Positions 4,518 to 37,186 of a stretch of 64,000 nt of DNA are shown here, piece by piece; within the stretch, counting starts at the first letter, position 1, and each line of letters starts with the position of its first letter. The notes beneath the pieces were generated by a model. The model was given only the letters and a program-made list of their open reading frames with translations. It was not told the DNA's origin and did not search any database. A program made the translations under genes and the position numbers. This DNA comes from a virus (taxonomy: Duplodnaviria; Heunggongvirae; Uroviricota; Caudoviricetes), in IMG/VR virus record IMGVR_UViG_3300011338_000526. One strand, given 5' to 3'.

Positions 4518-6578
4518 ATGAGAGACATTAGGGCGATCCTTGAAGGTATTGTAAGTCAATCCAAACCAATGGGTTCGGGCAGCGCAGCCTTCAGACATAG
4601 TTCGTCATCTGGCGCCAAAGGTCCGGAACATGGGATTGATGTTGGCGCTCATAGAAATTACGACCATGAAGTTAGAGCAAAAAATAAGAGTCTTGACGAC
4701 GCCAAGAAGCGCGAACAGACCGTCGAGAAACGTAATAGAGAAGCTGAACAGCGCCAAAAGGAAACCGCAAAAATGGCTAAGGAAGAAACAGTAACAGAAG
4801 CAAAGAAGTTTGTGTTTGACAAGCCTCAATCTCATATGGTCAAGGCTTACGACAAGCGCGACACTTCTGACTTACATGATATGCACAAGAGATGGTCTGC
4901 AGATCATTCGAAGCCAAAGAACAATCCTGAGACAAGCGAGAAGCTTCTAGCAGTTCACCATGTGCTGAAGAGTCGTGGCGAGAACGTTGGTGAGCTTCCA
5001 AAGCACAAGAACCTCGGATTGACTATGCATGAAGAGACCGTCAATGAAATTTTTGGTTTCGGCAAAAAGAAAAGCGAGCCCGAGCAAAGTTTACACAACA
5101 AAGATCTACCGAGACATCCGGACAATAATAAAGCTAAAGAATGGATGACGTCTAGACTTAATCATGCATTGAAGCACGCGCCAGATAAAGCACATCTTTT
5201 GTTTTCCCCGGCGTCGGGAGATTATATGCCTTTAAATGTTCATGTAGGTTCTAGCTGGAAAAAAGAGCACGAAGATCATTACAGAGAACTAAAAAAGAAG
5301 CACCCCGATCTGGTTCAAAAAGCAAAGAAAGATATGGAAACCAATGGTCCTTACTCGCAATCGAGAGTGGGCGATCACCAAGATTACCACGGCGTAAAAT
5401 TACGAGAAGAGACAAACTCAGAAAAGCGCATGACAATCAAGAACGTTGCTCGTCCTAACGATGCTGCTCCTACATCAGAAAAATCAACGCTGGCAAAGAC
5501 TGGCGAAATCAAAACAAAAATCGTAGAGGAAAAACCAACAATGTCTATGCCAAACTTCGGGCTTTCACAAAGCCTGATCAACGCTGCTCGTCAGATTGTC
5601 GAGAAGAAGCAAGAAGACGATGGCGTTGACGCCAAGAAGATGACTGGCGGAAATACTGTTGTTGATACAGATCCAGAAACTAACGATAAGGTCGAAGACG
5701 CCGATAGCAAGCCAGCAAAGAAGAAGTCCCACACGGTTCCAAAGACCGATAAGGAAAAGAAGCTTGCAGCTCTTGCTTCGCCAAAAGACAAGATCACACA
5801 CAAGGATGTGATGGTTGGTCGCGGCGTTGTTAGAAAGGAAGAAGTTGAGCTTTCAGCTGAAGAAATTGCGCGCATTGAAGCCATTGCCGCTCAACTCGAT
5901 GAAGCCAAGCCAACAATGGTATCTTCTCCCATTCGTGGTGCAAATCAGGACCAGAGCGGCTTTGGTACCAAGGGCTCAACAGCTGACTACACGATCTCTG
6001 ATTCCAAGAAGATGAAGGAAGAACTTTCATCAAAGGAAAAGATGAAGCGCGGAATGTACAACAAGGAAGAAGTTGAGCTTGAAGAAGCTTCAATGTCTAG
6101 TGGTCAGAAAACGGCATATAGAATGGGCATGACACATGGCGCGAAGGGCGCGAAGAAGATCGACGCTTCAAAGTCGTTCGGACCCCATGCTGATTATTAC
6201 CACAGAGGATATACTCAGGGTAAAGATAGCGAAGAATGGCACGAAAAACAGCGCGCGCGCAAGGAAGAAGTTGAGCTTGAAGAGGGTCGTGGTCGCCCAA
6301 GAAAGAATCCACTTCCACCTGGCAAGCAAGCAGAGGAAGGTGACGACACGCACAAGCATCCAATGCAGCAGCTAGAGAAGATTGCTCACTCCGTTGAAGG
6401 CAATGAGCCGCACTTCGAGCACAAGGATGGATCAAAGACTAAGGTTGGCAAGAACCTCGCCAGACACATGGTTGTGACTCATAACTCGATGAAGACAACT
6501 CAGGAAAAGAACAACTTCGCCGACAAGCTGCATGCTAATCGCGACTCAATGAGATCAGAGATGGGCAAGCACTTCTAA
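4518..6578 (+). CDS. highly charged K/E-rich protein with KEEVELEE repeats
   Basis: 686 aa. Three copies of aaggaagaagttgagctt (5834, 6062, 6260). Low-complexity charged sequence. Confidence 0.55.
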   Translation: MRDIRAILEGIVSQSKPMGSGSAAFRHSSSSGAKGPEHGIDVGAHRNYDHEVRAKNKSLDDAKKREQTVEKRNREAEQRQKETAKMAKEETVTEAKKFVFDKPQSHMVKAYDKRDTSDLHDMHKRWSADHSKPKNNPETSEKLLAVHHVLKSRGENVGELPKHKNLGLTMHEETVNEIFGFGKKKSEPEQSLHNKDLPRHPDNNKAKEWMTSRLNHALKHAPDKAHLLFSPASGDYMPLNVHVGSSWKKEHEDHYRELKKKHPDLVQKAKKDMETNGPYSQSRVGDHQDYHGVKLREETNSEKRMTIKNVARPNDAAPTSEKSTLAKTGEIKTKIVEEKPTMSMPNFGLSQSLINAARQIVEKKQEDDGVDAKKMTGGNTVVDTDPETNDKVEDADSKPAKKKSHTVPKTDKEKKLAALASPKDKITHKDVMVGRGVVRKEEVELSAEEIARIEAIAAQLDEAKPTMVSSPIRGANQDQSGFGTKGSTADYTISDSKKMKEELSSKEKMKRGMYNKEEVELEEASMSSGQKTAYRMGMTHGAKGAKKIDASKSFGPHADYYHRGYTQGKDSEEWHEKQRARKEEVELEEGRGRPRKNPLPPGKQAEEGDDTHKHPMQQLEKIAHSVEGNEPHFEHKDGSKTKVGKNLARHMVVTHNSMKTTQEKNNFADKLHANRDSMRSEMGKHF

Positions 6579-25110: not shown

Positions 25111-25434
25111 ATGGATGACATTGTTGAGCGTTTAGCTGATGCTAAAATTACAACATCGGCTAGAGCGAGAGATGAGCATGATGCGGAAGTTTACGCCGCT
25201 CTCGGAGACGCTTCGGATGAAATCGAGCGTCTCCGAGACAAGTGTGATAAGCAGGCTCGTATCATTCAGCAGGCTTATCCCGAATATTGCCCCGACGTGT
25301 ATTTCATTACAGGACATGCAGGCAACGAAGATTCTAACGGCATGCCAGAAGAGATTTACGTGTGTCCGTCATATGGCGTCGACTGGATTATGGTTTACAA
25401 GCGTACAGACAAGACAAGCGGTCCCGAGTGGTGA
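25111..25434 (+). CDS. hypothetical protein
   Basis: ATG 25111 with AAGAGGA upstream. Confidence 0.45.
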   Translation: MDDIVERLADAKITTSARARDEHDAEVYAALGDASDEIERLRDKCDKQARIIQQAYPEYCPDVYFITGHAGNEDSNGMPEEIYVCPSYGVDWIMVYKRTDKTSGPEW

Positions 25435-25655
25435 GATGGCAAGATGATTGTGTGGTAGAACGTATCTTCACTCAAACTGGAGATACTAACTATCCAGGCG
25501 GTCAGCATGCCGGAACACCCCGCTCCAGTATACGAGTTACCCATACACCATCGGGAATTATGGTGCAGTGCGGCGAGTTGAATTCGCCGCATAAGAACAA
25601 AATGCTCTGCATGGAGATGCTTGAGTGGGCTATGATTAAAACGGGAGTCATATGA
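25431..25655 (+). CDS. mini GGQ-domain protein (class I release factor / ArfB peptidyl-tRNA hydrolase domain)
   Basis: YPGGQHAGTPRSSIRVTHTPSGIMVQCGELNSPHKNKMLCMEM matches RF GGQ domain GGQHVNKT.SAVRITHIPTGIVV.CQ..RSQHKNK. Only GTG starts available (GTGGTGA overlap with upstream stop). Frame also open back to 25362. Confidence 0.55.
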   Translation: MRWQDDCVVERIFTQTGDTNYPGGQHAGTPRSSIRVTHTPSGIMVQCGELNSPHKNKMLCMEMLEWAMIKTGVI

Positions 25656-28138: not shown

Positions 28139-28483
28139 ATGACTATTTTACAAGAAAGAGAAGTTCCTTTTTGCAAAAGCTGCGGTGTAGAACCTGCAGC
28201 TAAACAAGGCATTTCTAAATTAGGATATCAAAAATACAGATCGGTTTGTCATTGGTGCCATAAGAACAAAAGACCGCACTTACTTTACCGTTCTTATAAG
28301 AAAGAGTCTTGTGAGGAATGCGGGTTCTTGGCTGTCAATAGATGTCAACTTGACGTAGATCACAAGGATGGGAACCATTCAAATCACGATCCTGACAACC
28401 TCGTGACCCTTTGCGCTAATTGCCACAGATTGAAAACTTACTTAAAAAAAGAAAATACGAACCTACGATGCAGGTCAGTCTAG
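28139..28483 (+). CDS. HNH homing endonuclease
   Basis: DVDHKDGNHSNHDPDNLVTLCANCH. Confidence 0.7.
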   Translation: MTILQEREVPFCKSCGVEPAAKQGISKLGYQKYRSVCHWCHKNKRPHLLYRSYKKESCEECGFLAVNRCQLDVDHKDGNHSNHDPDNLVTLCANCHRLKTYLKKENTNLRCRSV

Positions 28484-28660
28484 GTTGTAGTCGTATGCGT
28501 TACGCTCTTTGTTCCAGGTGACGCCTTTGTAGTTTTTGGGATCATATGTCTGCGACACCTTACGAGGTTTGATCTCGGGCGTCGCAGACTTGTATGGTTC
28601 TTTTTTATTAGTCGCCTTACTCACGATGTTGTGTATGACTTTATTAACTCGATCTGACAT
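28475..28660 (-). CDS. small Lys-rich protein
   Basis: 61-aa ORF at end of reverse-strand island. Confidence 0.3.
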   Translation of the reverse strand: MSDRVNKVIHNIVSKATNKKEPYKSATPEIKPRKVSQTYDPKNYKGVTWNKERNAYDYNLD

Positions 28661-28701
28661 GATGCCCCCATAAGTTTTAACTATTTATGAGGGTTGGAAC
28701 C

Positions 28702-29160
28702 TCAGTCGTGTTCAAATTCTTCAACGTCGGCACCATCCTTATGAACGCGAACCCAGACGCCTTCGCCATACGCTGCACGGAGCACTTCTTCTGGCATACT
28801 AGCCATGATGCGCTGCATAGTATCCATAGCTATACTCAAAGCTTCATCTTCAACCGTTACACCCCAATCGTTGATCAAACCTTCATCACCTTCGCCCCAT
28901 GCAACTTCACGCTCGTTGAGTTCGGTATGTGAAGTGGTAGTGAACCACATATCATTCATACTAAAGACGCATTCTTCGCCATCATTAAAATGTGGTGTAT
29001 ACTGAGTCCAGTGGATCGTCTTAACCTTCGGGAACTCTTCGAAGAATGCAGCGAACACCTTGTTCATCTCAACTCGCATTGTGTCTTGTAGACCTTTTGC
29101 AAGCTGTTCAAACTTCGCGAGAGTGCCATTAATGTTGGTTGCAGTATCATTAAAGCTCAT
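28702..29160 (-). CDS. acidic hypothetical protein
   Basis: 152-aa ORF. Confidence 0.45.
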   Translation of the reverse strand: MSFNDTATNINGTLAKFEQLAKGLQDTMRVEMNKVFAAFFEEFPKVKTIHWTQYTPHFNDGEECVFSMNDMWFTTTSHTELNEREVAWGEGDEGLINDWGVTVEDEALSIAMDTMQRIMASMPEEVLRAAYGEGVWVRVHKDGADVEEFEHD

Positions 29161-29164
29161 AATA

Positions 29165-29530
29165 TTAATCCTTATCTACTGGTTGTGGTTTAGACTCTTC
29201 AGAATACTTAGCGACCTTGCCGCCCATCCATTGCTCGATCGGCATTCCAGAGAAGCACTTTTCAAGCGTAGGGATGAACCCGAGGTCTTCGATGATGTGA
29301 GCCTCAGCTACATCACGGACGTGCACGGTCTTGTTATCCGAGTTTGTGATCGTATGACCAAAGACTCGCTCTGCGATGAAGCAGCCTACGGAGTTATGTA
29401 GGACCATGCGATGACGGATATCAGGCAGAGCCATCTTAGTGCAATCCATGAAATCATGAATCGCGATATAGTCTTCGGCTACGCCACCAAACTTCTTTGC
29501 GCTGATTCGCGCATGCACCATAGGCTTCAT
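29165..29530 (-). CDS. hypothetical protein
   Basis: Start at ATG 29530 (ATGA overlap with upstream stop). Confidence 0.45.
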   Translation of the reverse strand: MKPMVHARISAKKFGGVAEDYIAIHDFMDCTKMALPDIRHRMVLHNSVGCFIAERVFGHTITNSDNKTVHVRDVAEAHIIEDLGFIPTLEKCFSGMPIEQWMGGKVAKYSEESKPQPVDKD

Positions 29531-29847
29531 GTTTTTGGACTCCACAACTTTGCAAACTTCAGAACGTTCGGCAACTGATCATTTTCGCAAGGGATAGGGA
29601 TAGCACAGATTTTAATGCCATCAAGAGTCTTGCTCTCGTGACCAAGATAAGTGCCCTCGATAGCAGCGATCTTATCAAATTCCTTGCGATTGACACGTAC
29701 AACACACTTCTTGAAACTGTTGATCAGCCAATCAAGATACTGCGGGTTGTGCTGAAATACTAGATGAGCACCTAGAACACCATGTGCTACGACCGTGGGG
29801 ACGATGTGATCGGGAGTTTCATCTAGAATAGCGATATACAGTTTCAT
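29527..29847 (-). CDS. PTH2-like (peptidyl-tRNA hydrolase 2 fold) protein, tentative
   Basis: MKLYIAILDETPDHIVPTVVAHGVLGAH...KCVVRVNRKEFDKI...ICAIPIPCEN parallels PTH2 KMVIVVRSDIKMGKGKIAAQVAHAA...KIIVKVNSLDEI...CLGIGPAPEN. Catalytic residues not clearly conserved. Confidence 0.35.
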   Translation of the reverse strand: MKLYIAILDETPDHIVPTVVAHGVLGAHLVFQHNPQYLDWLINSFKKCVVRVNRKEFDKIAAIEGTYLGHESKTLDGIKICAIPIPCENDQLPNVLKFAKLWSPKT

Positions 29848-29848
29848 C

Positions 29849-30235
29849 TTAGTCGACCTCAACCTCTTGAACAAAATAAGTTGCGCAATAATCATTCACA
29901 CTACGGGCGATCTTACGCAGATCATCATCGGTGAAAATACCATGTTGGGCAGCGCGCGAGATCTCGCGAGATTCTTCCCAACCAATATAGCCATCACGGA
30001 GCTCAAATCCACGATCTTTGAACACCTGAAGTGCTTCCGAACCATGATCGAATGCAGCTGTTTCAGATAGATATTCGAGGTCTCCTTCCTTGAAACCCTC
30101 AACCATCATATCAATTGCTGCTTGGTTAGCTGCAGCCAGAGACGTATAGGCTCGTACTGCATTGCCGCCTTCCGTCACTTCATAATTGCTGTCGTCATAC
30201 TCAAAGCTACGACGCTGAATCACATATACTTTCAT
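29849..30235 (-). CDS. hypothetical protein
   Basis: 128-aa ORF. Confidence 0.45.
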   Translation of the reverse strand: MKVYVIQRRSFEYDDSNYEVTEGGNAVRAYTSLAAANQAAIDMMVEGFKEGDLEYLSETAAFDHGSEALQVFKDRGFELRDGYIGWEESREISRAAQHGIFTDDDLRKIARSVNDYCATYFVQEVEVD

Positions 30236-30247
30236 TGCTAAATTCCT

Positions 30248-30565
30248 CTATTTCGAATTCTTAGGTTTGGGTAATTTCCACCACTGCGTAGCGAGCATCC
30301 ATAGAACCTTCAAAGCTCCTTTTCGAGCTCTCCATGTATCAGTTTCTAAAGGATCTCCTGCCATAGTTGCGATATACGCTTCTCGGCAGTGGCCATCCCA
30401 GAATGCACTATCAATCCATGCCTCAGCTTCCGTTTCATCGCGTGCATGCGCAAGAGCTGAGATTGTCCACTTTCTTCCATCATCAGGCGCTTTAAAAATG
30501 GTCGAAGCTGCATAGCGGTTGATTGAAAGAAGTCTACGCATAGCCCAATCAATAATAGGTGTCAC
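30248..30565 (-). CDS. hypothetical protein
   Basis: 105-aa ORF. Confidence 0.45.
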   Translation of the reverse strand: MTPIIDWAMRRLLSINRYAASTIFKAPDDGRKWTISALAHARDETEAEAWIDSAFWDGHCREAYIATMAGDPLETDTWRARKGALKVLWMLATQWWKLPKPKNSK

Positions 30566-30927
30566 TTATTCACCTCCATTGCCATCAATCCAAGATTACA
30601 CCAATTTGGTTCTACAATATGACCAACGGAGTAGATCTTACCACTCCATCCTTCTTCGCGCTCAACACGCACATACTTGCCCTCGAGGTCTTCCCAGCAT
30701 GTCACGCCAACAGCTTCTAGGAGAGAGCGAATGGCTTCAATACCAAAGGCACTGCCTACTCGCTTCTTGGTTTCCTTGTTGTAGCTGTCAAAAGCATAGC
30801 CACCGTAACCTTGACCCGAACCACCATAGTCAAGAGTAATCATGAATGTCATGATACCATGATCCTCAATACCAAGCATGGTGGACTCGATACGAGCGTT
30901 TACAATTTCAGAAGCCATAATTTTCAA
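30562..30927 (-). CDS. hypothetical protein
   Basis: 121-aa ORF. Confidence 0.45.
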   Translation of the reverse strand: MKIMASEIVNARIESTMLGIEDHGIMTFMITLDYGGSGQGYGGYAFDSYNKETKKRVGSAFGIEAIRSLLEAVGVTCWEDLEGKYVRVEREEGWSGKIYSVGHIVEPNWCNLGLMAMEVNK

Positions 30928-31571
30928 TCCACGTAAAATTGACGTTGTAGGGAAACTTCGTTCCGTCCCATATCATAAACTGATTCTACGAAAAAGTCAA
31001 TCGTAGAATTGGGCAGCTTGAAACCCTTTTCGCGATACTTCAGAAGCCTCTTGAACGTTGCGTTAGGATGCGTCGCCGTATTAAGAGTGAGTTCCTTCTT
31101 ACGCACATCGCGGATAGCCTTGCGATCGGTATAGACATGTGTGCCATTATACGCAAAGCGACCTGCATTGATATCAAAAGTTGCAAGCAAATGCTCTGCG
31201 TGTATGTAGAAGTCCTTTGTGATGAGCTGCACCTTGATATACTGGCTACCTGCAAGCTTGGGAGCCAGATCGTTGAAGTCAGGCTCGGCGACCTTGAGAT
31301 AGGTTGTCAGCTCACCCTTCGGGCACTTGAAGATCACATGGAAGCCATTGCTTTCCAAGCTCACCGCAGCCTCAGCAGCCCGAAGTTGGTTCGAAAAGAA
31401 CAAGTCAAAGTCACAGAGAACATCCTGCTTGTCAATCAAACCACGCAGAGCGCCGCCAGCCAACCAGCACGTCCCTCGGTCGGTCTCTCCCACGACACCT
31501 TCCATAGCCAGAAGATCGTGGATGCGAGAGTCCTTGATTCGCCAAAGGATCTTATCTGTAAACTTAAGCAC
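30924..31571 (-). CDS. short nucleotidyltransferase of the CCA-adding / poly(A) polymerase head-domain family
   Basis: AGGALRGLIDKQDVLCDFDLFF matches GGAVRDxLLGxxxKDxDxxV. Later ATFDINAGRF matches RRDLTINAL. Only 215 aa, head plus neck. Confidence 0.55.
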   Translation of the reverse strand: MLKFTDKILWRIKDSRIHDLLAMEGVVGETDRGTCWLAGGALRGLIDKQDVLCDFDLFFSNQLRAAEAAVSLESNGFHVIFKCPKGELTTYLKVAEPDFNDLAPKLAGSQYIKVQLITKDFYIHAEHLLATFDINAGRFAYNGTHVYTDRKAIRDVRKKELTLNTATHPNATFKRLLKYREKGFKLPNSTIDFFVESVYDMGRNEVSLQRQFYVD

Positions 31572-31582
31572 TTAGATTCTCC

Positions 31583-32404
31583 TTATCGAATCCCAGGAAG
31601 GTTGATGAAAGGAACACCGGAAGTAGCAGCCGGCAGCTGACCATTCCACTTCTGCGCAGCCATGTACTGGACCAACTCAGGAGTCACGGAAGCAGCCACG
31701 ATTCGGTTAGCAGCAGCCTGACCCTCAGCCTCAATACGTTGACGCTCAGCTTCCTGTCGAGCCGTCTCTACCTGCTGACGGCGCTGCTCAGTCTCCTGAC
31801 CGGCAGAGATTCGGCGGTTGATGGCTTCAACGACTCGTGCATCAAGACGGAACTGACCAACTGCGTAGATGTTGTCAACCATAATACCATGAGGACTCAT
31901 TCGCGCTTGAACAGCCTTCAGAACCTCATCCATGAAAGCGTTCTTACCGTCACCGATAATGTCTTCGATACGGCGAGTAGAGGCAGCACTCACAAGAGCA
32001 TCCCGAACCTCGTTACGAAGAGTCTGGCGAGTGATTTCCATCGCACCCATACGATAGCGCTGGAAGATATCAGGAATTCGGTTGCGATCAAACACATACT
32101 GCACACCGAAGTCGCCATTAATGTTGGCACCTTCACGAGACTGAATATCGATCGACTCATTGGTGGGACTCTGGCTGGTATTAGCAGCATCCCAGACGTA
32201 GTTTTGAACGAACGTCGGGAACGTATAGAGTCGCTCAGTGAAGCCAATCCAGTGGCGACCCGGCTCGAGCAGATTACGCTGCACACCACGCTCACCGCCA
32301 GAAGTGGTCACCTTCACGCCCACCTGACCCGGCTCGACGTAATCACAAGCCACTGTAGAAAGAGCGAGAACACTCACGGCAGTCATCTTAGCAAAACGAT
32401 TCAT
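31583..32404 (-). CDS. SPFH/band-7 (HflC/stomatin-like) lipoprotein
   Basis: Lipobox ...LALSTVAC. Band-7 core and C-terminal coiled-coil QETEQRRQQVETARQEAERQRIEAE. Confidence 0.7.
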   Translation of the reverse strand: MNRFAKMTAVSVLALSTVACDYVEPGQVGVKVTTSGGERGVQRNLLEPGRHWIGFTERLYTFPTFVQNYVWDAANTSQSPTNESIDIQSREGANINGDFGVQYVFDRNRIPDIFQRYRMGAMEITRQTLRNEVRDALVSAASTRRIEDIIGDGKNAFMDEVLKAVQARMSPHGIMVDNIYAVGQFRLDARVVEAINRRISAGQETEQRRQQVETARQEAERQRIEAEGQAAANRIVAASVTPELVQYMAAQKWNGQLPAATSGVPFINLPGIR

Positions 32405-32405
32405 A

Positions 32406-32618
32406 TTAAAGATCCTTCACAATGGAAATGATTTGTTGAACGCAGAACAGGAGGCTGAGAATAATCACTGCCAGAGCAGTGGGAAGAAACAGCCAGATAA
32501 AAGGACTCTCGATAGCAAAGATGGCGGGCAGAAGCATACCCATACCTCCAAAAGCAATCATAATCCCTGCGAAGCTATAAGTCAACAACTTAATTGTGGT
32601 CTTGTAACTAATTTTCAC
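32406..32618 (-). CDS. 2-TM small membrane protein (NfeD-like partner of SPFH)
   Basis: 70 aa, two hydrophobic helices. Translationally coupled downstream of SPFH gene. Confidence 0.5.
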   Translation of the reverse strand: MKISYKTTIKLLTYSFAGIMIAFGGMGMLLPAIFAIESPFIWLFLPTALAVIILSLLFCVQQIISIVKDL

Positions 32619-32884
32619 GATTCATTATCCTTTACAACGTTAATAAGACGGCGGAACTCGTTAGCGTCACAATCCCCATATTGACAGGGCAGCGACACCA
32701 TACGTTCAGCTAAGGCAATGAGTAGGTCATCCTTCGCTTGTCTGACTTCTTCTACTTTCATAGCTTCTTCGTTGCGCTTTGCTCGATCTCTGCATGCCTC
32801 GCACTCGAGCCGATCCCATACACATAGATTAAAGCAGCCACGGTTCTGACAGCGCCCAGTGATTTTACTCGGCATCAGTTGCAA
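32615..32884 (-). CDS. Cys-rich zinc-ribbon-like small protein
   Basis: CxxxGC...CxxC...C pattern. 89 aa. Confidence 0.45.
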   Translation of the reverse strand: MQLMPSKITGRCQNRGCFNLCVWDRLECEACRDRAKRNEEAMKVEEVRQAKDDLLIALAERMVSLPCQYGDCDANEFRRLINVVKDNES

Positions 32885-33129
32885 CCTCTCGCAAGAGGGC
32901 TGGCGGCGATCATGGCGCGGTATCGCTCTTCATGCGCGCCTGCGTGGTTCATGCCGGGTGTCCAAGCCCGCATCGCTGCGTCAAGCATCGGGTTTGTCAC
33001 CTCCCTCGGCACTACCACGTATCCCGCCGCCTCGATTGCGGCGAGGGCGGCGGCGGGTAGATCATCACCACGCATGCGAGCGCCATTCAGTGCATCGCCC
33101 ACAATCGCCACCAACTTCGCGCGCGTCAT
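32875..33129 (-). CDS. hypothetical protein (GC-rich sub-island)
   Basis: 84-aa ORF in locally high-GC DNA. Confidence 0.4.
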   Translation of the reverse strand: MTRAKLVAIVGDALNGARMRGDDLPAAALAAIEAAGYVVVPREVTNPMLDAAMRAWTPGMNHAGAHEERYRAMIAASPLARGCN

Positions 33130-33482
33130 GGTGTAGTCTCCTTGGGCAGCAGGGCGAGGATGGCTTCTGAAATTTCAGCAGGAGGGCAGCCGTTCTTCCA
33201 AGCTTCGTGAGCCGCAGCCGCTGCATCCTTCGCGCCTCGCGCGTAGCCGGTGGCGTCGGCGGCGTCGGCTTGCTTGCCCAACTCCCATCCACGCTTTTGC
33301 CAGTCATCGCTTTGCAGTTTCCACGCATCCCTCTCCCGCTCCGCCGCATCCAGCTCGGAGCGGAGGGCGCGCAAGGTGGCGGCTGAAAGTTGCAAACCGT
33401 CATAATTCAGACGTTCTGCCAACCGCTCCACCGCCTCTCGGCTCGTATCAATATCCATTTCAAAATTCCTTTCTGTTACCAA
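33126..33482 (-). CDS. hypothetical coiled-coil protein (GC-rich sub-island)
   Basis: 118-aa ORF. Confidence 0.4.
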   Translation of the reverse strand: MVTERNFEMDIDTSREAVERLAERLNYDGLQLSAATLRALRSELDAAERERDAWKLQSDDWQKRGWELGKQADAADATGYARGAKDAAAAAHEAWKNGCPPAEISEAILALLPKETTP

Positions 33483-33688
33483 CGACGACGATAAACAGGG
33501 CGCCCATAGTAGCGAGGCGCATGATAGCGCGGAGCGTAATACCTCGGCGCAACATAGACAGGTGCCCGATAGACTGGCGCCACGTAGTGATAAGAAGGCG
33601 GGGGCGAATGCACGGTCAGAGTCCCATCAGGATAGACCGTGCAAGCTGAAAGACCAGCCAGCGCTACGATTGCTAAAAGCCTCTTCAT
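33476..33688 (-). CDS. small lipoprotein with YxAPRYY tandem repeats
   Basis: MKRLLAIVALAGLSAC lipobox. VYRAPVYVAPRYYAPRYHAPRYYGRPVYRRRW. Confidence 0.4.
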   Translation of the reverse strand: MKRLLAIVALAGLSACTVYPDGTLTVHSPPPSYHYVAPVYRAPVYVAPRYYAPRYHAPRYYGRPVYRRRW

Positions 33689-33689
33689 A

Positions 33690-33929
33690 TCAGCTCCCAC
33701 CATACACGTAGTGAAGAGCTTCGTCTTGAGCAGACGTCGGATAAGAGGCTTCGGGTTCGCGAAAGCCTTCGTTATCCTTATGATCCAACCAGTCCTGGAA
33801 GAATTTGGCATCCCAATGAGGGAACCTTACCCACGCCATTCGCTGGGCTCGCTCGAGAGACTCAGCTACAATCACGACCATGCCGAACGACCAATCCTGC
33901 AAGACGCCTTCAAACACGAAAACTTGCAT
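33690..33929 (-). CDS. hypothetical protein
   Basis: 79-aa ORF. Stop adjacent to lipoprotein ATG. Confidence 0.4.
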   Translation of the reverse strand: MQVFVFEGVLQDWSFGMVVIVAESLERAQRMAWVRFPHWDAKFFQDWLDHKDNEGFREPEASYPTSAQDEALHYVYGGS

Positions 33930-33942
33930 ATCAATTCTCCTC

Positions 33943-34134
33943 TTAGCGCATGAAGTGGCGGATGATCTTCATCTCACTCTCAGTGATCGGACCATCCCAG
34001 TGACCCGCATACGGAGTGTCGATCTCGGCGACACGCTCAGCGATCTGCGAAAGCAGATTGGACTTGCGATCATCCGGGTGAGCCTTGGCGGCTGCCTCGA
34101 TGCGCTGCACGATTTCGTAGATCTTCACGTTCAT
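33943..34134 (-). CDS. small hypothetical protein
   Basis: Start at second ATG, with AAAGG RBS. Promoter module upstream. Confidence 0.4.
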   Translation of the reverse strand: MNVKIYEIVQRIEAAAKAHPDDRKSNLLSQIAERVAEIDTPYAGHWDGPITESEMKIIRHFMR

Positions 34135-34161
34135 GATCTTGCCTTTCGTTTTCATAAGCTC

Positions 34162-34190
34162 ATCATACCCCTAAGATGAAAATAAGTCAA
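34162..34190 (-). promoter_or_regulatory. early promoter module on reverse strand
   Basis: Reverse complement reads tccTTGACTTattttcatcttaggggTATGAT. Confidence 0.5.
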
Positions 34191-34211
34191 GGATGTTTTT
34201 ATTAAAAAGTG

Positions 34212-34427
34212 TTAATCTTCGTCCACAAACCTCAACTGCACTTCGCGGACGCGAGCACCAGTGTCGGGCATGGGTTCGCCGCGCTCCCAATAATGGCGAG
34301 GGTCCAGCTGTTTGATGGCAGCAGCCTTGGAGACCCAGACTCCCGCGCTCTGTAAGTTTTCAGTAGAAGGTTGACCGCGAGTCTTATTAGCAAAACTTCC
34401 GTCAGCCAGCTGAATCACATAAGGCAT
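34212..34427 (-). CDS. small hypothetical protein
   Basis: ATG 34427 with AAAGGAA RBS, downstream of promoter. Confidence 0.4.
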   Translation of the reverse strand: MPYVIQLADGSFANKTRGQPSTENLQSAGVWVSKAAAIKQLDPRHYWERGEPMPDTGARVREVQLRFVDED

Positions 34428-34454
34428 CTCAGTTCCTTTCGATCTTATAAAACC

Positions 34455-34483
34455 ATCATAACCCGGTTTCAAAAATAAGTCAA
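34455..34483 (-). promoter_or_regulatory. early promoter module on reverse strand
   Basis: Reverse complement reads agtccTTGACTTatttttgaaaccgggtTATGATggttttataagatc. Confidence 0.5.
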
Positions 34484-34486
34484 GGA

Positions 34487-34687
34487 CTATTTTGCTTCGG
34501 GATAGAGGTAATCCATCTCGCCGGTCTCCTTCATCCGGCGAAGCTGCCGAGCTACGAGCGAGGCGATCTTGCCGTCGCGCGAGAGCCCGACGGCAAGGCA
34601 GCGATCCAACAGAGCCAACTCAGAGTCCGTCAGCATATAGCGGAGTTCTTTTTCGAAAGCGGTCATTTCAATTTCCTTCGTCATCAT
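34487..34687 (-). CDS. small hypothetical protein
   Basis: ATG 34687 directly after -10 (possibly leaderless). Confidence 0.4.
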   Translation of the reverse strand: MMTKEIEMTAFEKELRYMLTDSELALLDRCLAVGLSRDGKIASLVARQLRRMKETGEMDYLYPEAK

Positions 34688-34693
34688 ATTATC

Positions 34694-34731
34694 ATCATAC
34701 CTCAGGTTTGAAATTAAAGCAAGGAAATTAA
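34694..34731 (-). promoter_or_regulatory. promoter variant ccTTGCTTTA-N-TATGAT (MotA-box-like)
   Basis: Reverse complement reads tccttgctttaatttcaaacctgaggtatgat. Confidence 0.35.
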
Positions 34732-34753
34732 AAACCAACGATTTCAATCACTT

Positions 34754-35115
34754 AGGTCTTAACCCATTGAAATCGTTGGGTAATGTTTTTTGAGCCGATC
34801 AAAGATTTTTCTAAAATCAAGCGATTTCAATGACTTAGCGAAAATCGGCTCTCTCGTTGATCTAGATACGGTTGAGCCGGTATTCTCCCGGTTTAGATCA
34901 ACGAGAGCGGCTAAAACCCGTAAGTCACTGATTTTACAAGACTTTTTAAATTCGCCGAAAAATAAAAAACCTTGTGATTACTGTGACTTAGCGGAAGCCT
35001 CACGCGAGCGATGCCTTAAAACGGGAAGAATCTAAGATCGGCTCAAAAAACATTACCCAACGATTTCAACCACTTAGGTTCGCCGCCGAGCTAAGTCGTT
35101 GATTTCCTTCAAAAA
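34754..35115. repeat. palindrome/iteron-rich element: 34-bp perfect inverted repeats flanking ~235 bp with six ACTTAG-core iterons
   Basis: IR 34788-34821 vs 35057-35090. 14-bp hairpin 34756-34800. Iterons at 34770, 34853, 34945, 35004, 35092, 35110. Confidence 0.6.
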
Positions 35116-35123
35116 GATAATCC

Positions 35124-35152
35124 TTGACCTTTTTTCAAAAATGAGGTATGAT
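35124..35152 (+). promoter_or_regulatory. early promoter module (TTGACC variant)
   Basis: tccTTGACCt-N17-TATGAT. Confidence 0.5.
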
Positions 35153-35176
35153 GGTTTTATCAAGAGGAGAGAGAAA

Positions 35177-35266
35177 ATGACTCAGGCGGTTTTGAACGTT
35201 CTCGGCGGTCTCGGTTTCGCGGCTGCGCTCTATGGTTTCACTGCCGTCCTCTTCCTGGTCGGCTGA
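35177..35266 (+). CDS. 29-aa hydrophobic micro-protein (single TM)
   Basis: GAGGAGAGAGAAA-ATG. MTQAVLNVLGGLGFAAALYGFTAVLFLVG. Hidden inside a spurious 100-aa ORF. Confidence 0.25.
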   Translation: MTQAVLNVLGGLGFAAALYGFTAVLFLVG

Positions 35267-35277
35267 AGGAGAAAAGT

Positions 35278-35451
35278 ATGTATCTCGTGAGCTTTACCAA
35301 CATGGGCTACTCGAAGGAATTCGCGAGCCAGGATTCGGCGATCACCTATATGAAGCGTGCGTGCTTCGAGGCGGTCCTGATGACGCCGAAAGGCGAACGG
35401 ATCGGCGAGTTCCGCCCGATCTCCGGCGAATTTATTTTTCAAAATCGCTGA
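35278..35451 (+). CDS. 57-aa hypothetical protein
   Basis: GAAGGAGAAAAGT-ATG. Ends just before next promoter module. Confidence 0.3.
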   Translation: MYLVSFTNMGYSKEFASQDSAITYMKRACFEAVLMTPKGERIGEFRPISGEFIFQNR

Positions 35452-35460
35452 AGATAGTCC

Positions 35461-35489
35461 TTGACTTATTTTTAAATCTAAGGTATGAT
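35461..35489 (+). promoter_or_regulatory. early promoter module
   Basis: agtccTTGACTT-N17-TATGAT. Confidence 0.55.
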
Positions 35490-35517
35490 GTTTTTATAAG
35501 ATCGAAAGGAACGAAAA

Positions 35518-35733
35518 ATGATTCAGAAGAATGAAGTTTTGCGGCTGATCGCCAGCATCAAGTTTTGTGAGTTCAGCGAAAATGATTGGCTGGTTTTTCA
35601 GGGCTGCACGTCCGAAAACCCTATGATCGGCGAGAACGACGATTATCTGGTGATCCTTGATGGCGACGTCGTCTGCGTTTTGACCAATGATTTCGACAGC
35701 GAACAGCAGATGTTTTTCCTTCGGGACTACTGA
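35518..35733 (+). CDS. small hypothetical protein
   Basis: 71 aa. RBS AAAGGAACGAAAA. Confidence 0.45.
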   Translation: MIQKNEVLRLIASIKFCEFSENDWLVFQGCTSENPMIGENDDYLVILDGDVVCVLTNDFDSEQQMFFLRDY

Positions 35734-35742
35734 AGATAGTCC

Positions 35743-35770
35743 TTGACTTAATTCCCGAAACCCAGTATAA
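35743..35770 (+). promoter_or_regulatory. early promoter module
   Basis: agtccTTGACTT-N16-TATAAT. Confidence 0.55.
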
Positions 35771-35802
35771 TCATTAATGTGATGATGATAAAGGAATCAA
35801 AG

Positions 35803-36225
35803 ATGCGAATTGAAACCACTAATTCCTGGCGAGTGCGGGTTCCGGCTGGCACCTACTTGCTGGGCGATCCCTGCTACGCTGTTCCCGACAATCTCTGGGA
35901 TGAAGCTGGCCAGTCTTGCGATTGGTGGCAGTCTAATCCCGTCGCGACCGTTACTGTCGAGGGCAAAGAATACAAGATCCTCGGTTTCGGTACAGCTCAC
36001 GGCGATGGTTGCTACAATTGCCGTGACGGAATCGAATATCCTGTCGACGCTGGGTTGATTGGTCTGGTTCCCATTGAGCTCGCCAATCCCCAAGATCCCG
36101 ATTTTCCCCTCAATAGTCTCGTTGTATTTGATCGCGAGACTCTGTGCACGAACGACGACGGTGTTATGCGGTTCGGCAACATTCACATCGACACCAAGAA
36201 TCAAGAAGAAGAAGAGGAATATTAA
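35803..36225 (+). CDS. Cys-containing hypothetical protein with acidic tail
   Basis: ATG 35803 with AAGGAA. Poly-E C-terminus. Confidence 0.5.
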   Translation: MRIETTNSWRVRVPAGTYLLGDPCYAVPDNLWDEAGQSCDWWQSNPVATVTVEGKEYKILGFGTAHGDGCYNCRDGIEYPVDAGLIGLVPIELANPQDPDFPLNSLVVFDRETLCTNDDGVMRFGNIHIDTKNQEEEEEY

Positions 36226-36227
36226 AG

Positions 36228-36536
36228 ATGAACGCAATTGAAATTCTTCTGAATGACTCGCGAGGGGTGTATATTCCCCAGAACTTCGCTGAGAATTTCG
36301 TTATGAGCGATTGGGGTGTCGGCGACGATACTCGAGATATTCTTCTCGCCGGTCCGACTTCCGAAAACGAATGGTACTGGGAAGCCTGGGAACAGGTTCT
36401 TAACAACGCTTCTTACGTCGATGCCACAGGTAATAAGTGGCACCTGTCGCAGGAAGGCGACCTGTTCGCTTACTGCGTTGAGCTCATGAGCGCCCGAGAA
36501 TACGCTGACTTTTTCGGCACCGAGATCGAAGATTAA
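36228..36536 (+). CDS. hypothetical protein
   Basis: ATG 36228 after AGGAAT. 102 aa. Confidence 0.5.
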   Translation: MNAIEILLNDSRGVYIPQNFAENFVMSDWGVGDDTRDILLAGPTSENEWYWEAWEQVLNNASYVDATGNKWHLSQEGDLFAYCVELMSAREYADFFGTEIED

Positions 36537-36557
36537 TCTTTTTTAACAAAATAGCCC

Positions 36558-36586
36558 TTGACTTATTTTTAAAACCAGGGTATGAT
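36558..36586 (+). promoter_or_regulatory. early promoter module
   Basis: gcccTTGACTT-N17-TATGAT. Confidence 0.55.
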
Positions 36587-36611
36587 GGTTTTATAAGATG
36601 AGGAGATAGAG

Positions 36612-36766: not shown

Positions 36767-37186
36767 TTAAAAACATTTTTTGTTATGATGCCCGAAGAAA
36801 GAGGGCACTGAAGTTTCTTTTCTACAACCCAAACAAGAGATCCTAACATAGTTTGGGTTGTTTCTTTTCCCCAAATTGCTTTTTATCGCTGCTAGTTTTC
36901 CTTTTTCTGATTGCATCTTAGAATCGTACACTCCCGTTTTTCTTTCTTTTTGTTTTCTGTGAGTGTCGCGAGCGTTCTTAGATAACAATCTAGCAAAACC
37001 TTCTTTGTAGGTTATTTGCGAATTTAATAATTGGTAAGACCAAAGATCTTCGATTTTGCCGTGTTTTTTATAGAGCTCTAGATGAGCTTCAGCGTGGTCT
37101 TCGACCGTTAGTTTGATTAAATTATCTTCGTCGTCCGTTCCTCCCATATGTTTTGGGATGATATGGTGGACGTGGTAAATAGTCAT
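36767..37186 (-). CDS. HNH homing endonuclease
   Basis: HHIIPKHMGGTDDEDNLIKLTVEDHAEAH. C-terminal CxxC...HH..C. Confidence 0.65.
   Translation of the reverse strand: MTIYHVHHIIPKHMGGTDDEDNLIKLTVEDHAEAHLELYKKHGKIEDLWSYQLLNSQITYKEGFARLLSKNARDTHRKQKERKTGVYDSKMQSEKGKLAAIKSNLGKRNNPNYVRISCLGCRKETSVPSFFGHHNKKCF
36834..36880 (+). terminator. 11-bp stem-loop plus T-rich tail (terminator of cassette array). Lies inside the HNH ORF 3' end
   Basis: acaacccaaac...gtttgggttgt ttcttttcc. Confidence 0.4.

Follow-up and report, generated by a model that had tools for sequence, protein, structure and literature searches.

A variable minus-strand gene island encoding a Gad2-family nucleotidyltransferase and a PTH2-fold protein in a T4-like metagenomic phage

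Organization of the island

The DNA analysed, a 64-kb window (meaning here the whole stretch), belongs to the 155.8-kb genome of a T4-like metagenomic phage, whose background markers include gp5 and gp6 domains as well as gp59, RNaseH and PhoH. A GGQ mini-protein and two tRNAs are also encoded by this phage. ORF calling gave 18 minus-strand ORFs (g01 to g18) with no or minimal overlap at 28475–34747, set between an exonuclease/dCMP-deaminase module, of which the exonuclease is conserved, on one side and a DUF932 gene on the other (Table 1). The earlier note had described about 17 small genes running opposite to their surroundings, and the packed ORFs bear this out; the GC skew agrees, its negative values in the window being confined to 28–35 kb, as expected from the strand switch. 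The JGI gene calls on the identical contig comprise 17 genes, with the small lipoprotein gene g14 skipped. From g15 down to g01 the genes overlap or are separated by gaps of 1–41 nt. The GC content is heterogeneous, ranging from 42% to 64% (window, 47%; 0.469). Informative similarity was absent for 12 of the 18 genes, the PADLOC defence-system models gave no matches, and no ligase, kinase or phosphatase gene was found within the 64-kb window of the 155.8-kb genome.

Table 1. Genes and other features of the island and its borders (positions in the window; L numbers denote loci in other phages)
Feature	Position	Strand	Evidence or remarks
HNH homing-type endonuclease, left border	28139..28483	+	Pfam HNH 3.7e-6; phrog_2255 7e-10
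Weak terminator-like hairpin, end of minus-strand block	28460..28476	-	7-bp stem, T-rich tail
g01, basic, 61 aa	28475..28660	-	82% identical in L016 only
g02, strongly acidic (30 D/E vs 11 K/R), core island gene, 152 aa	28702..29160	-	phrog_9564, phrog_10375
g03, DUF6915 protein	29165..29545	-	Pfam DUF6915 1.2e-39
g04, PTH2-fold protein of a large phage family without a Pfam model, 106 aa	29527..29847	-	AlphaFold and Foldseek
g05, acidic (26 D/E vs 13 K/R), core-like, 128 aa	29849..30235	-	homologs in L001, L028, L029, L030 (28-43%)
g06, Trp-rich, 105 aa	30248..30565	-	97% identical in L016 only
g07, ~118-121 aa	30562..30927	-	phrog_30930 4.5e-31; homologs in L016, L029, L030, L036
g08, Gad2-family nucleotidyltransferase, NTase-only short form, 215 aa	30924..31571	-	PF26128, hhalign, fold
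g09, SPFH/Band 7 protein, 273 aa	31583..32404	-	Pfam Band_7 2e-22; phrog_200 'lipoprotein' 9.6e-69
g10, two-transmembrane partner, 70 aa	32406..32618	-	hydrophobicity; 1 nt upstream of SPFH gene
g11, Cys-rich, 86-89 aa	32615..32884	-	7 Cys in 86 aa
g12, 64% GC (0.643), 84 aa	32875..33129	-	weak phrog_5913 match; this genotype only
g13, coiled-coil-like, 59% GC, 110-118 aa	33126..33482	-	this genotype only
g14, small lipoprotein (MKRLLAIVALAGLSAC), Pro/Tyr/Arg-rich repeat tail, 70 aa	33476..33688	-	canonical lipobox
g15, 79 aa	33690..33929	-	homologs in L001 (50%), L016 (94%)
g16, first gene of long polycistron, 70 aa	33943..34155	-	99% identical in L016, 66% in L001
Early-type promoter upstream of g16	34162..34190	-	TTGACT-17-TATGAT, extended conservation
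g17, genotype-specific, 71 aa	34212..34427	-	start corrected from 34472
Early-type promoter upstream of g17	34455..34483	-	promoter scan, repeat comparison
g18, 66 aa	34487..34687	-	start corrected from 34747; 66-aa call in L019
Degenerate copy of early-type promoter, upstream of g18	34678..34725	-	inverted repeat I2; promoter scan
Right border: iteron and inverted-repeat region, divergent promoters on either side	34730..35100		repeats

Borders and promoters

An HNH endonuclease followed by a terminator had been proposed as the left border, and of the two only the HNH gene stood up. Its ORF is convergent with g01, overlapping it by 9 nt; none of the 11 related loci has the gene, and in L016 a DUF7487 gene occupies its position. 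The accompanying hairpin lacks statistical support, since shuffled sequences yielded more terminator-like sites than the scan did. At the right border, the palindrome/iteron element and repeated promoters noted earlier were all found. The motif CGATTTCAAySACTTAG occurs there in three exact copies (0.04 expected) and a fourth, degenerate one, all in direct orientation, and exact copies were not found in any non-identical relative; a 45-nt inverted repeat lies at 34767–34811/35025–35069. This region may serve as an origin or as a regulatory switch.

Copies of an extended promoter sequence (TCCTTGACTTATTTT...GGTATGATG) lie at 34712, 34483 and 34190 (minus strand) and at 35124, 35461 and 36558 (plus strand); the degenerate minus-strand copy before g18 is mirrored by a plus-strand promoter at 35121–35168. 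Because the -10 box GGTATGATG translates as '...RYD...', several ORF starts are over-extended. The starts originally listed for g17 and g18 were rejected, as these ORFs would read through their own promoters.

Gene products

Protein g08 had been described as a CCA-adding/poly(A)-polymerase-family nucleotidyltransferase (NTase), which holds for its fold and not for its sequence family. Its model (pLDDT 88) is predicted to share the head and neck of class-II CCA-adding enzymes, the top Foldseek matches in the PDB being CC-, A- and CCA-adding enzymes (E 2e-7, TMq ~0.6, TMt at most 0.37). By sequence, in contrast, it belongs to the Gad2 family: PF26128:Gad2 is recorded for the exact protein and for all 25 of 25 homologs, the verified Brevibacillus Gad2 aligns over its residues 9–166 (hhalign probability 98%, E 2.2e-13; BLASTP E 3e-9), no PolyA_pol or RlaP Pfam match was obtained, and the hhalign alignment with E. 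coli Cca is limited to the GG motif. The family is large (4751 cluster representatives match, the best 150 being mostly 180–250 aa), and the GG...DxD residues are invariant. Whereas CCA-adding enzymes have 340–460 aa with a tRNA-binding body and tail, g08 has 215 aa and neither of these parts; it likewise lacks the C-terminal half of verified Gad2 (~400 aa), matching only its N-terminal ~160 residues. Experiments have shown that Gad2 counteracts Gabija (Yirmiya et al., bioRxiv 10.1101/2023.05.01.538930), and how it does so is still unknown (PMC12904381). Since the alignment covers only that N-terminal part, ascribing anti-Gabija activity to the short form is an extrapolation.

The PTH2-like assignment of g04 is likewise split between fold and active site. 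Its AlphaFold model (pLDDT 91.7) has PTH2 structures as all of its top 13 Foldseek PDB matches (2zv3, 1rlk, 1q7s, 3erj and 1xty among them; TMq 0.66–0.77, with an NMR model at rank 13 having TMq 0.59), and the three best PDB sequences in a profile search were also PTH2 (E 0.08–0.18). However, the column of the catalytic Lys of PTH2 is I/V in the g04 family, and no PTH2 Pfam match was found. The family, with more than 1062 cluster representatives and members in 197 cultured phages, is represented in several phage lineages by genes that often lie beside Rnl1 RNA ligase genes, PNKP genes or tRNA arrays: 1) Rnl1 is directly upstream of the g04 homolog in L046, L050 and L049; 2) among 80 IMG/VR loci of the family, Rnl1 lies within 6 kb in 18 and tRNA genes lie within that distance in 12 (raw counts); and 3) in Salmonella phage S116 the homolog is inside a tRNA array. 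In L109 a long Gad2-like NTase is located 1.6 kb from a g04 homolog.

Three of the 18 island proteins (g09, g10 and g14) are predicted envelope products. An SPFH lipoprotein with a two-transmembrane (2-TM) partner had been recognized before, and this reading was confirmed by the Band_7 match and by retention of the pair in another phage context. Owing to its N-terminal signal and Cys20, g09 is a putative lipoprotein, although its lipobox (STVAC) is non-canonical. Copies of g09 with 82% identity are found in a different phage context, L025 and L026 each have an analogous ~70-aa 2-TM ORF ending 1 nt before their SPFH gene, and the cassette is found elsewhere with no other island gene; judged from these sequences, g09 and g10 behave as a mobile two-gene cassette. 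SPFH genes are recurrent accessory ORFs among T4-like phages, including 44RR, Aeh1 and RB43 (PMC1524935). The lipoprotein g14 is conserved in L001 (72%) and L016 (86%).

Among the remaining products, g02 has homologs in 7 related loci (36–71% identity). Protein g03, with a probable start at 29530 (121 aa), is the best conserved of the island (78–96% identity), whereas the flanking exonuclease is only 61–92% identical in the same relatives; no similarity of g03 to PDB entries or to the HD-domain was detected, and in L033 and L037 its gene is 0–0.4 kb downstream of HAD_PNKP. The Cys-rich protein of the earlier description is g11, possibly a zinc ribbon, for which family profile searches gave no significant match. 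Gene g12 looks like a recent foreign acquisition, and the high GC contents of g12 and g13 (64% and 59%, compared with 47% in the window) point to a foreign source for both.

Polymorphism among relatives

Comparison of synteny in related phages, proposed earlier as a check, revealed strong presence/absence polymorphism: the gene content of the locus differs in every relative sampled, and the distance between the flanks is 9.4 kb in the window, compared with 2.6 kb in L004, 5.5 kb in L001 and 9.7 kb in L030. In the presence/absence matrix of relatives, g04, g09 to g13, g17 and the HNH gene are restricted to this genotype. L016 has flanks 89–97% identical, yet 8 of the 18 genes are missing there and 4 different ones are present.

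In sister phages, the same island houses a T4-type RNA healing/sealing kit of Rnl1, AAA_33 kinase and HAD_PNKP phosphatase, which is directly beside the NTase in three cases. L003 contains AAA_33 kinase, Rnl1 (5.9e-25) and HAD_PNKP (7.8e-31) genes, and L030 contains Rnl1, metallophosphoesterase and kinase genes. The order NTase–HAD_PNKP is found in L033, L036 and L037, followed in L033 and L037 by DUF6915, Rnl1, Metallophos and AAA_33. This association is seen in one phage clade only and may be due to common descent instead of a functional link. Kit and NTase occur together in L033 and L037, the kit without the NTase in L030 and L003, the NTase without the kit in the window and L016, and neither in L001. 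L016, L033, L036, L037 and L038 have g08 but no g04, and all combinations of NTase, PTH2-fold gene and kit exist among relatives; in cultured phages, the host genera of the 197 with g04 differ from those of the 14 with g08-like genes. Since all combinations occur and no other genotype of the comparison has g04, the NTase and the PTH2-fold gene are not a co-inherited pair, and the independent assortment of NTase, g04 and kit indicates a mosaic counter-defence island rather than one system of 17 genes.

Interpretation

The first hypothesis of the earlier note was a toolkit that repairs tRNA 3' ends or deacylates tRNA. On this reading the short NTase would rebuild trimmed CCA ends and the PTH2-like protein would strip off acyl-aminoacyl or peptidyl groups, with both acting jointly against tRNA-targeting defences. 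Points in its favour are the folds of both proteins, the sister-phage operon in which the NTase adjoins the PNKP phosphatase together with Rnl1 and kinase, the proximity of an NTase to a class-I LysRS and a PP-loop enzyme on a jumbo-phage contig, the neighbourhoods of g04 homologs, and the GGQ mini-protein, PhoH and two tRNAs of the same phage; moreover, comparative genomics has already established that phages can carry RNA-repair sets in which NTases and PTH2 are included (PMC7824862). Against it stand the sequence-based membership of g08 in Gad2, a family known for inhibiting a DNA-end-sensing system, the missing tRNA-binding parts, the replaced catalytic Lys of g04, the lack of co-inheritance, and a window devoid of repair partners, so that this toolkit appears doubtful. 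That the island is mainly membrane-directed, serving superinfection exclusion or host takeover with the soluble enzymes as incidental passengers, seems quite unlikely: the SPFH protein, its 2-TM partner and the canonical lipoprotein g14 are all present, and SPFH ORFs recur in T4-like phages, but few products are predicted at the envelope, the SPFH cassette is restricted to this genotype, and the conserved backbone (g02, g03, g05 and g07) is soluble. A single coherent system, with the NTase, the PTH2-fold protein, the SPFH/2-TM pair and the remaining products as subunits, is extremely improbable; tight packing on one strand, frequent overlaps and few internal promoters would suit it, but it is already contradicted by the synteny matrix, in which single genes or two-gene cassettes come and go independently, as well as by the uneven GC content and by the SPFH cassette found elsewhere on its own.

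The locus is probably a hypervariable island of counter-defence and host-takeover cargo, kept at a fixed position in a T4-like phage clade, with genes exchanged independently. This corresponds to the alternative of a diverse anti-defense island, which the Gad2-family NTase and the locus polymorphism make the better supported reading; the label 'counter-defence' is extended to the whole island from a few of its members and from its behaviour as a variable locus. Transcription, opposite to that of the neighbours, would start from the repeated sigma-70-like early promoter copies before g18, g17 and g16, and beyond the g16 promoter a single tight polycistron would extend down to g01. The cargo comprises i) the backbone common to relatives, including the DUF6915 protein, ii) the Gad2-family NTase, with its GG...DxD catalytic head and neck kept, iii) the PTH2-fold protein, and iv) the mobile 2-TM/SPFH cassette, two or three putatively recent foreign genes of high GC content and the small lipoprotein. 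The NTase may modify the 3' end of a nucleic acid (or else a defence protein), thereby blunting a nuclease-type host defence such as Gabija; g04 may hydrolyse an ester of (peptidyl- or aminoacyl-)tRNA that has been damaged or modified, as part of the response to translation-targeting defences; and the membrane cassette may have an envelope role such as superinfection exclusion.

Overall, the block is a rather conventional counter-defence island for a phage. It adds a new member to a known kind and yields two testable enzyme leads, the short Gad2 relative and the PTH2-fold protein.

Structure and borders of the island

The 18 ORFs of the island, numbered g01 to g18 from the left, lie in series on the minus strand, and the GC skew is negative over the stretch that contains them. 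The genes around the island are on the plus strand. Those on the left encode ribonucleotide reductase (RNR) subunits, PhoH, a 74-aa RF-1-domain protein, dCMP deaminase and a PD-(D/E)XK exonuclease, and those on the right include small ORFs, a gene for a DUF932/TIGR03299 protein, two tRNA genes and gp59. The reverse-strand block described in the earlier note, with an HNH endonuclease gene at its left and an iteron and promoter region at its right, was thus confirmed. T4-type replication and baseplate genes are present on the source contig, which is metagenomic and 155,781 bp long, and near-identical contigs were found in other samples. The JGI gene calls (3300011337, Ga0153702_1002) comprise 17 genes in the block; the 18th, g14, was not called. 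Its product is a lipoprotein with a canonical lipobox (signal MKRLLAIVALAGLSAC) and a tail of AP(V/R)Y-type repeats, and since the gene is kept in two relatives (L001 and L016) it was counted as real. A search with Rfam detected two tRNAs, both outside the island, and none inside it.

On the left, the HNH endonuclease gene converges on g01, and a minus-strand hairpin with a T-rich tail found there is weak and without statistical support. At the right border, divergent early promoters enclose four units like CGATTTCAAySACTTAG and an inverted repeat of 45 nt. Three of the units match the motif exactly (0.04 expected), whereas the exact motif was not found in the non-identical relatives fetched; from its sequence, the region resembles an origin or a regulatory switch. 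Six copies of an extended sigma-70-like promoter, TCCTTGACTTATTTT-N-GGTATGATG, are present, and the conserved part of this early-type promoter spans about 45 nt. Several mechanically predicted ORFs were over-extended at the N-terminus because the -10 box GGTATGATG had been read through as "...RYD/GYD..."; they include g17 and g18 (71 and 66 aa after correction) and several plus-strand ORFs. Two further promoter-like sites lack the extended conserved flanks, lie inside coding sequence and were regarded as chance matches. From g16 to g01 the genes overlap or are spaced by 1–41 nt, and because of this tight spacing they look like one polycistron.

Coordinates of the features discussed (positions in the window unless a locus is named)
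Feature	Position	Strand	Remark
RF-1-domain gene	25431-25655	+	74 aa
HNH endonuclease gene	28139-28483	+	left border
Hairpin	28476-28460	-	T-rich tail
Island	28475-34747	-	g01-g18
g03	29165-29545	-	DUF6915
g04	29527-29847	-	PTH2-like fold
g08	30924-31571	-	215 aa
g12 and g13	32875-33482	-	high GC
g14	33476-33688	-	70 aa
Promoter-like sites	31000, 32585		rejected
Right border	34730-35100		repeat units, inverted repeat
Extended promoter, six copies	34190-36558	both	minus: ahead of g18, g17, g16; plus: 35124, 35461, 36558
Early-type promoter, conserved part, copies within	34162-36590	both	
Over-extended ORF (example)	35099-35266	+	
Second HNH endonuclease gene	36767-37186	-	139 aa; alone inside plus-strand block right of island
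g08-identical protein, L018	10834-11481		
DUF7487 gene, L016	5058-5891		at site of window's HNH
Rnl1 gene divided by a DUF7487 gene, L050	2506-5011		
Short Gad2-like NTase locus, L034	2961-9000		
IMPDH, Rnl1 and PTH2-fold genes, L049	745-2655		
Long-form Gad2-like NTase, L109	3144-4340		about 398 aa
g04-family gene, L109	about 5956-6351		same strand as the NTase, 1.6 kb downstream

Variation among related phages

Near and distant DNA searches with the island against 50,697 phage records returned no relatives, with two short pieces at chance level alone, and among cultured phages there is no close relative in DNA sequence. An initial scan of IMG/VR with a protein pattern for g08 also gave no match, and the related loci were obtained by protein-anchored searches of IMG/VR and assemblies. 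The conserved exonuclease gene is 2.6 kb from the DUF932 gene in L004, 5.5 kb in L001, 9.4 kb in the window and 9.7 kb in L030. A presence/absence matrix of 11 loci showed that g02 and g03 (7 loci each) form a backbone together with g05 and g07; g08 was present in five loci, while g04, g09 to g13, g17 and the HNH gene were limited to the genotype of the window. The closest relative, L016, has flanks 89–97% identical to those of the window, yet it lacks 8 of the 18 genes, has four others and carries a DUF7487 gene at the site of the HNH gene. A DUF7487 gene on the opposite strand was also seen in L050, where it divides the RNA ligase gene Rnl1 into two ORFs, which suggests a homing-endonuclease-like insertion. 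The GC contents of g12 and g13 are 64% and 59%, respectively, vs 47% for the window, and these two genes seem to have been acquired recently from a donor of high GC; g12 also contains the motif AAGYVVVPRE.

The block is therefore an accessory island, and the synteny comparison proposed in the earlier note revealed strong polymorphism in both flank spacing and gene content. Since the genes assort independently among the relatives, the idea of a single 17-gene system was dropped. T4-type genomes typically have variable pockets in which small early genes stand behind repeated promoters; these are known as hyperplastic (hypervariable) regions. Like these regions, the island is fixed between conserved modules, consists of small genes mostly without annotated function, varies in content between close relatives according to the 11-locus matrix, carries near-identical early promoters (six copies) before single small genes and has homing endonuclease genes at its edges. 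Unlike them, it is inverted as a whole relative to its neighbours and abuts an iteron/inverted-repeat element. Accessory ORFs, including SPFH genes, have been described in the T4-like phages 44RR, Aeh1 and RB43 (PMC1524935).

The nucleotidyltransferase g08

SPbeta-like Bacillus phages have Gad2 as their second anti-Gabija protein; it has 400 aa and a predicted nucleotidyltransferase (NTase) domain, and deletion of gad2 sensitises phage SPbetaL7 to Gabija (Yirmiya et al. 2023/2024). A precomputed match to the Gad2 family, PF26128 (E ≤ 1e-5), is on record for a protein identical to g08, as it is for 25 of 25 g08 homologs. No match to g08 was found in NCBIfam, among PDB sequences or, at E ≤ 0.1, in our local Pfam copy, which presumably lacks the PF26128 model. 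When the g08 family profile was aligned by hhalign with the verified Gad2 of Brevibacillus laterosporus (sequence from Suppl. Table 10 of the Gad2 paper), 153 columns were matched with a probability of 98% (E 2.2e-13), covering only residues 9–166 of Gad2, and BLASTP of g08 with the same protein gave E 3e-9. The aligned part is the NTase domain, and the Pol-beta-type motif GG...DxD is kept, with G39, G40, D54 and D56 invariant in 22 sequences. Like gad1 and gad2 of the SPbeta phages, g08 lies in a variable locus where counter-defence genes replace each other. Unlike the verified Gad2 proteins (394–400 aa), which in SPbetaL7 and Brevibacillus reach about 400 aa and include a C-terminal domain, it lacks the whole C-terminal half; it also belongs to a T4-like phage with a probably Gram-negative host, and an anti-Gabija role is putative.

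Short stand-alone Gad2-like forms constitute a large family of their own. An HMM scan of 1.84 billion representatives detected 4751 relatives of g08, and the best 150 of these are almost all 180–250 aa long. Viral forms in BFVD are both short and long, and long Gad2 forms are present in Vibrio and Shewanella phages. Considering the PF26128 match, the alignment to a verified Gad2 and the short length, g08 is assigned by sequence as an NTase-only short member of the Gad2 family. Two other contigs show Gad2-like genes in settings of their own. On a 304-kb contig of jumbo-phage size (L034), a short Gad2-like NTase gene is located between genes for a class-I lysyl-tRNA synthetase and a PP-loop protein (ATP_bind_3, TilS-like), with an AAA_33 kinase and a metallophosphoesterase nearby. 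In L109, a long-form Gad2-like NTase gene precedes a g04-family gene, this being the sole locus of 80 in which the two are neighbours.

The AlphaFold model of g08 (pLDDT 88) relates it to another group of enzymes. In the PDB, Foldseek placed CC-, A- and CCA-adding enzymes and poly(A) polymerase (3aql/3aqm) in all of the top 38 positions, at TMq of 0.43–0.65 (about 0.6 for the best, with E 2e-7). Like the class-II tRNA nucleotidyltransferases (PF01743), g08 has the head/neck fold (E 2e-7 to 1e-5, TMq 0.5–0.65) and GG...DxD, and by eye its FDINA stretch resembles motif B. Unlike them, it has no sequence-family match, and by eye the templating EDxxR is not conserved. The model covers the head and neck of CCA enzymes alone (target-normalised TM ≤ 0.37), and the 215 aa of g08 include neither the body nor the tail domain for the acceptor/T arm of tRNA. 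At E ≤ 0.1, Pfam gave no match of g08 to PF01743 (PolyA_pol head) or to PF10127, the RlaP family (PMC12776372). In hhalign with E. coli Cca, 12 columns were aligned (probability 1.4%), corresponding to the GG motif alone. Assignment of g08 by sequence as a CCA enzyme or RlaP was consequently rejected.

The PTH2-fold protein g04

No annotation was obtained for g04 from Pfam, PHROG functions or NCBIfam. Its family comprises more than 1062 clusters, and the best 120 matches are 65–100% identical to g04. With the AlphaFold model (pLDDT 91.7), the top Foldseek matches in the PDB were PTH2 proteins only (2zv3, 1rlk, human Bit1 1q7s, 3erj and 1xty), aligned over the full fold (108–119 columns; E 6e-5 to 3e-3, TMq 0.66–0.77). 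Three PTH2 proteins also ranked first, weakly (E 0.08–0.18), when the family profile was searched against PDB sequences, and Pfam gave no match to PTH2 (PF01981) at E ≤ 0.1. The catalytic Lys of the PTH2 motif GK-x-AAQ is K18 in S. solfataricus Pth2. In the HMMER alignment, K19 of Ta0108 in this column is opposite position 15 of the g04 family, which is I or V. The invariant residues of the family are D13, H22, H28, K47, C48, E56, E71 and C81. By this model the fold of g04 is that of PTH2, but its chemistry may be different.

Cultured phages with a g04 homolog number 197, Pakpunavirus and T5-like phages among them. In Salmonella phage S116, which is T5-like, the gene is embedded in the tRNA array. 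It follows exonuclease and HNH genes in phiPsa374 and in PaoP5, and the latter has Pnkp at a distance of 3 kb; a 259-aa protein of Acinetobacter phage ME3 has the homolog as its C-terminal half. A gene for a T4 Rnl1-type ligase is directly upstream of the homolog, or no more than 1.5 kb away, in four large metagenomic contigs. Among 80 g04 loci from IMG/VR, raw counts gave a same-strand Rnl1 gene at a distance of up to 6 kb in 18 (directly adjacent in five), Rnl1, kinase or PNKP phosphatase in 22, and tRNA genes in 12. In L049, an IMPDH gene with a match to the Hint (intein-type) domain adjoins a pair of Rnl1 and PTH2-fold genes. A literature search for phage-encoded peptidyl-tRNA hydrolase as an anti-defence protein gave nothing.

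The stand-alone RF-1-domain protein of the window, encoded among the early genes near PhoH, has an intact GGQ (NYPGGQHAG). It is a release-factor-type mini peptidyl-tRNA-hydrolase domain and may serve as a ribosome-rescue factor.

DUF6915, the SPFH cassette and other genes

The DUF6915 protein g03 is 78–96% identical across L001, L016, L028–L030, L033 and L037, whereas the core exonuclease is 61–92% identical in these loci, and by this comparison g03 is under stronger constraint than any other island gene. Many of its His, Asp and Glu residues are invariant, and in two relatives its homolog is 0–0.4 kb downstream of the HAD_PNKP gene. No structural or functional match to g03 was found, the DUF6915 profile had no match among PDB sequences, and a literature search for DUF6915 returned nothing. 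A split E. coli-type Cca, with g03 as its HD phosphohydrolase half, was considered and rejected, as hhalign to Cca was negative and there was no PDB match.

The SPFH protein g09 matches Band_7 (PF01145) above the gathering score (80.5 bits, cutoff 23.6; E 2e-22). Its N-terminus, MNRFAKMTAVSVLALSTVAC, has Cys20 with Thr at -3, which does not fit the strict lipobox pattern; phrog_200 is annotated as lipoprotein. An SPFH gene 82% identical to g09 was found in an unrelated phage context, again with an ORF for a 2-TM protein of about 70 aa located 1 nt upstream, and this recurrence marks the pair as a mobile two-gene cassette. As in bacterial SPFH/NfeD pairs (stomatin-type), a Band_7 protein with a putative N-terminal membrane or lipid anchor has a gene for a small membrane protein immediately upstream; unlike in those pairs, the partner of g09 is a 70-aa 2-TM protein without an NfeD match, and the pair is phage-borne and mobile. 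NCBIfam had no match to any island gene. PADLOC gave only noise-level matches over the island (NsnC 0.005, Csm2 0.0015), so that a phage-borne defence system is not supported.

RNA-repair genes in sister islands and the nature of the island

Several sister islands contain genes of T4-type RNA repair. In L003, a minus-strand block beside the exonuclease gene encodes an AAA_33 kinase, Rnl1 (PF09511, 5.9e-25), a deaminase and a HAD_PNKP phosphatase (7.8e-31), and L030 has Rnl1, metallophosphoesterase and kinase genes. HAD_PNKP follows the g08 homolog by 0.2–0.4 kb in L033, L036 and L037, and in L033 and L037 it is followed by DUF6915, a g02 homolog, Rnl1, Metallophos and AAA_33, then by the exonuclease in L037, while the L033 contig ends at AAA_33. 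In these two loci Rnl1 is in the same operon as the g08 homolog; it is absent from the window and L016. The Pnkp-Rnl1 kit of T4 type is present in L003, L030, L033 and L037, whereas tblastn of the L003 kit proteins against the 64-kb window detected an unrelated deaminase alone and no ligase, kinase or phosphatase. Both kit and NTase occur in L033 and L037, the kit alone in L030 and L003, the NTase alone in the window and L016, and neither in L001. Since all four combinations occur, the NTase is not obligatorily coupled to the kit.

The earlier note had offered two readings, a toolkit for tRNA 3'-end repair or deacylation and a diverse anti-defence island. The first would be a system of a known kind, because phage RNA-repair and ribosome-rescue sets comprising Rnl1/Rnl2/RtcB, kinases, HAD phosphatases, RlaP NTases, CCA-adding enzymes, Thg1 and PTH2 have been described, with a proposed role of phage PTH2 in releasing peptides from cleaved tRNAs (Iyer et al. 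2021, PMC7824862). The sister islands resemble such sets in combining Rnl1, a separate kinase, a HAD_PNKP phosphatase and an NTase, and the g04 family, PTH2-folded and linked to Rnl1, would fit the published idea of peptidyl clearing from cleaved tRNAs. In contrast to these sets, the window has no ligase, kinase or phosphatase, its NTase is by sequence neither RlaP nor a canonical CCA enzyme, and g04 has diverged too far to be matched by the PTH2 model of Pfam and has no Lys in the catalytic column. The island therefore holds, at most, fragments of a tRNA toolkit, and the diverse anti-defence reading fits best; the support for a tRNA theme is contextual, not direct. Most likely it is a mosaic cargo island, with a Gad2-family NTase, a non-canonical PTH2-fold hydrolase, a membrane cassette, DUF6915 and other genes. 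In such an island g08 would presumably have a nucleic-acid end or a defence protein as its target, and g04, as a putative hydrolase, charged tRNA that is damaged or modified.

Taken by itself, the island is ordinary, since variable early-gene pockets of T4-like phages and phage RNA-repair sets are already known. Its interest lies in the placement of a short NTase-only relative of Gad2, with the fold of a CCA enzyme, in a T4-like phage and beside PNKP and Rnl1 genes in sister genomes. The mechanism of Gad2 is listed as unknown in a 2026 review (PMC12904381), and the fold of g08 and its sister-genome neighbourhood supply a specific biochemical hypothesis. Gad2-family NTases could conceivably be trimmed derivatives of CCA-adding enzymes acting on nucleic-acid 3' ends, the short form being the ancestral working unit, which in T4-like phages would operate within an RNA-damage-response module (PNKP phosphatase, kinase, Rnl1, DUF6915 and a non-canonical PTH2-fold esterase), although we consider this unlikely. 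If it were true, Gad2 would work by end tailing or end repair, as opposed to the stoichiometric binding by Gad1, which would also suggest that OLD-family defence nucleases such as GajA of Gabija damage RNA or tRNA in vivo or are sensed through it; according to a report cited in the review, the Old nuclease of P2 cleaves tRNAs (PMC12904381). The g04 family, for which Pfam has no model, merits attention for its very large size, high conservation, PTH2 fold, changed active site and repeated links to Rnl1 or tRNA arrays. The locus is a natural swap site, and the alternative cargoes of the relatives can be mined for further counter-defence genes.
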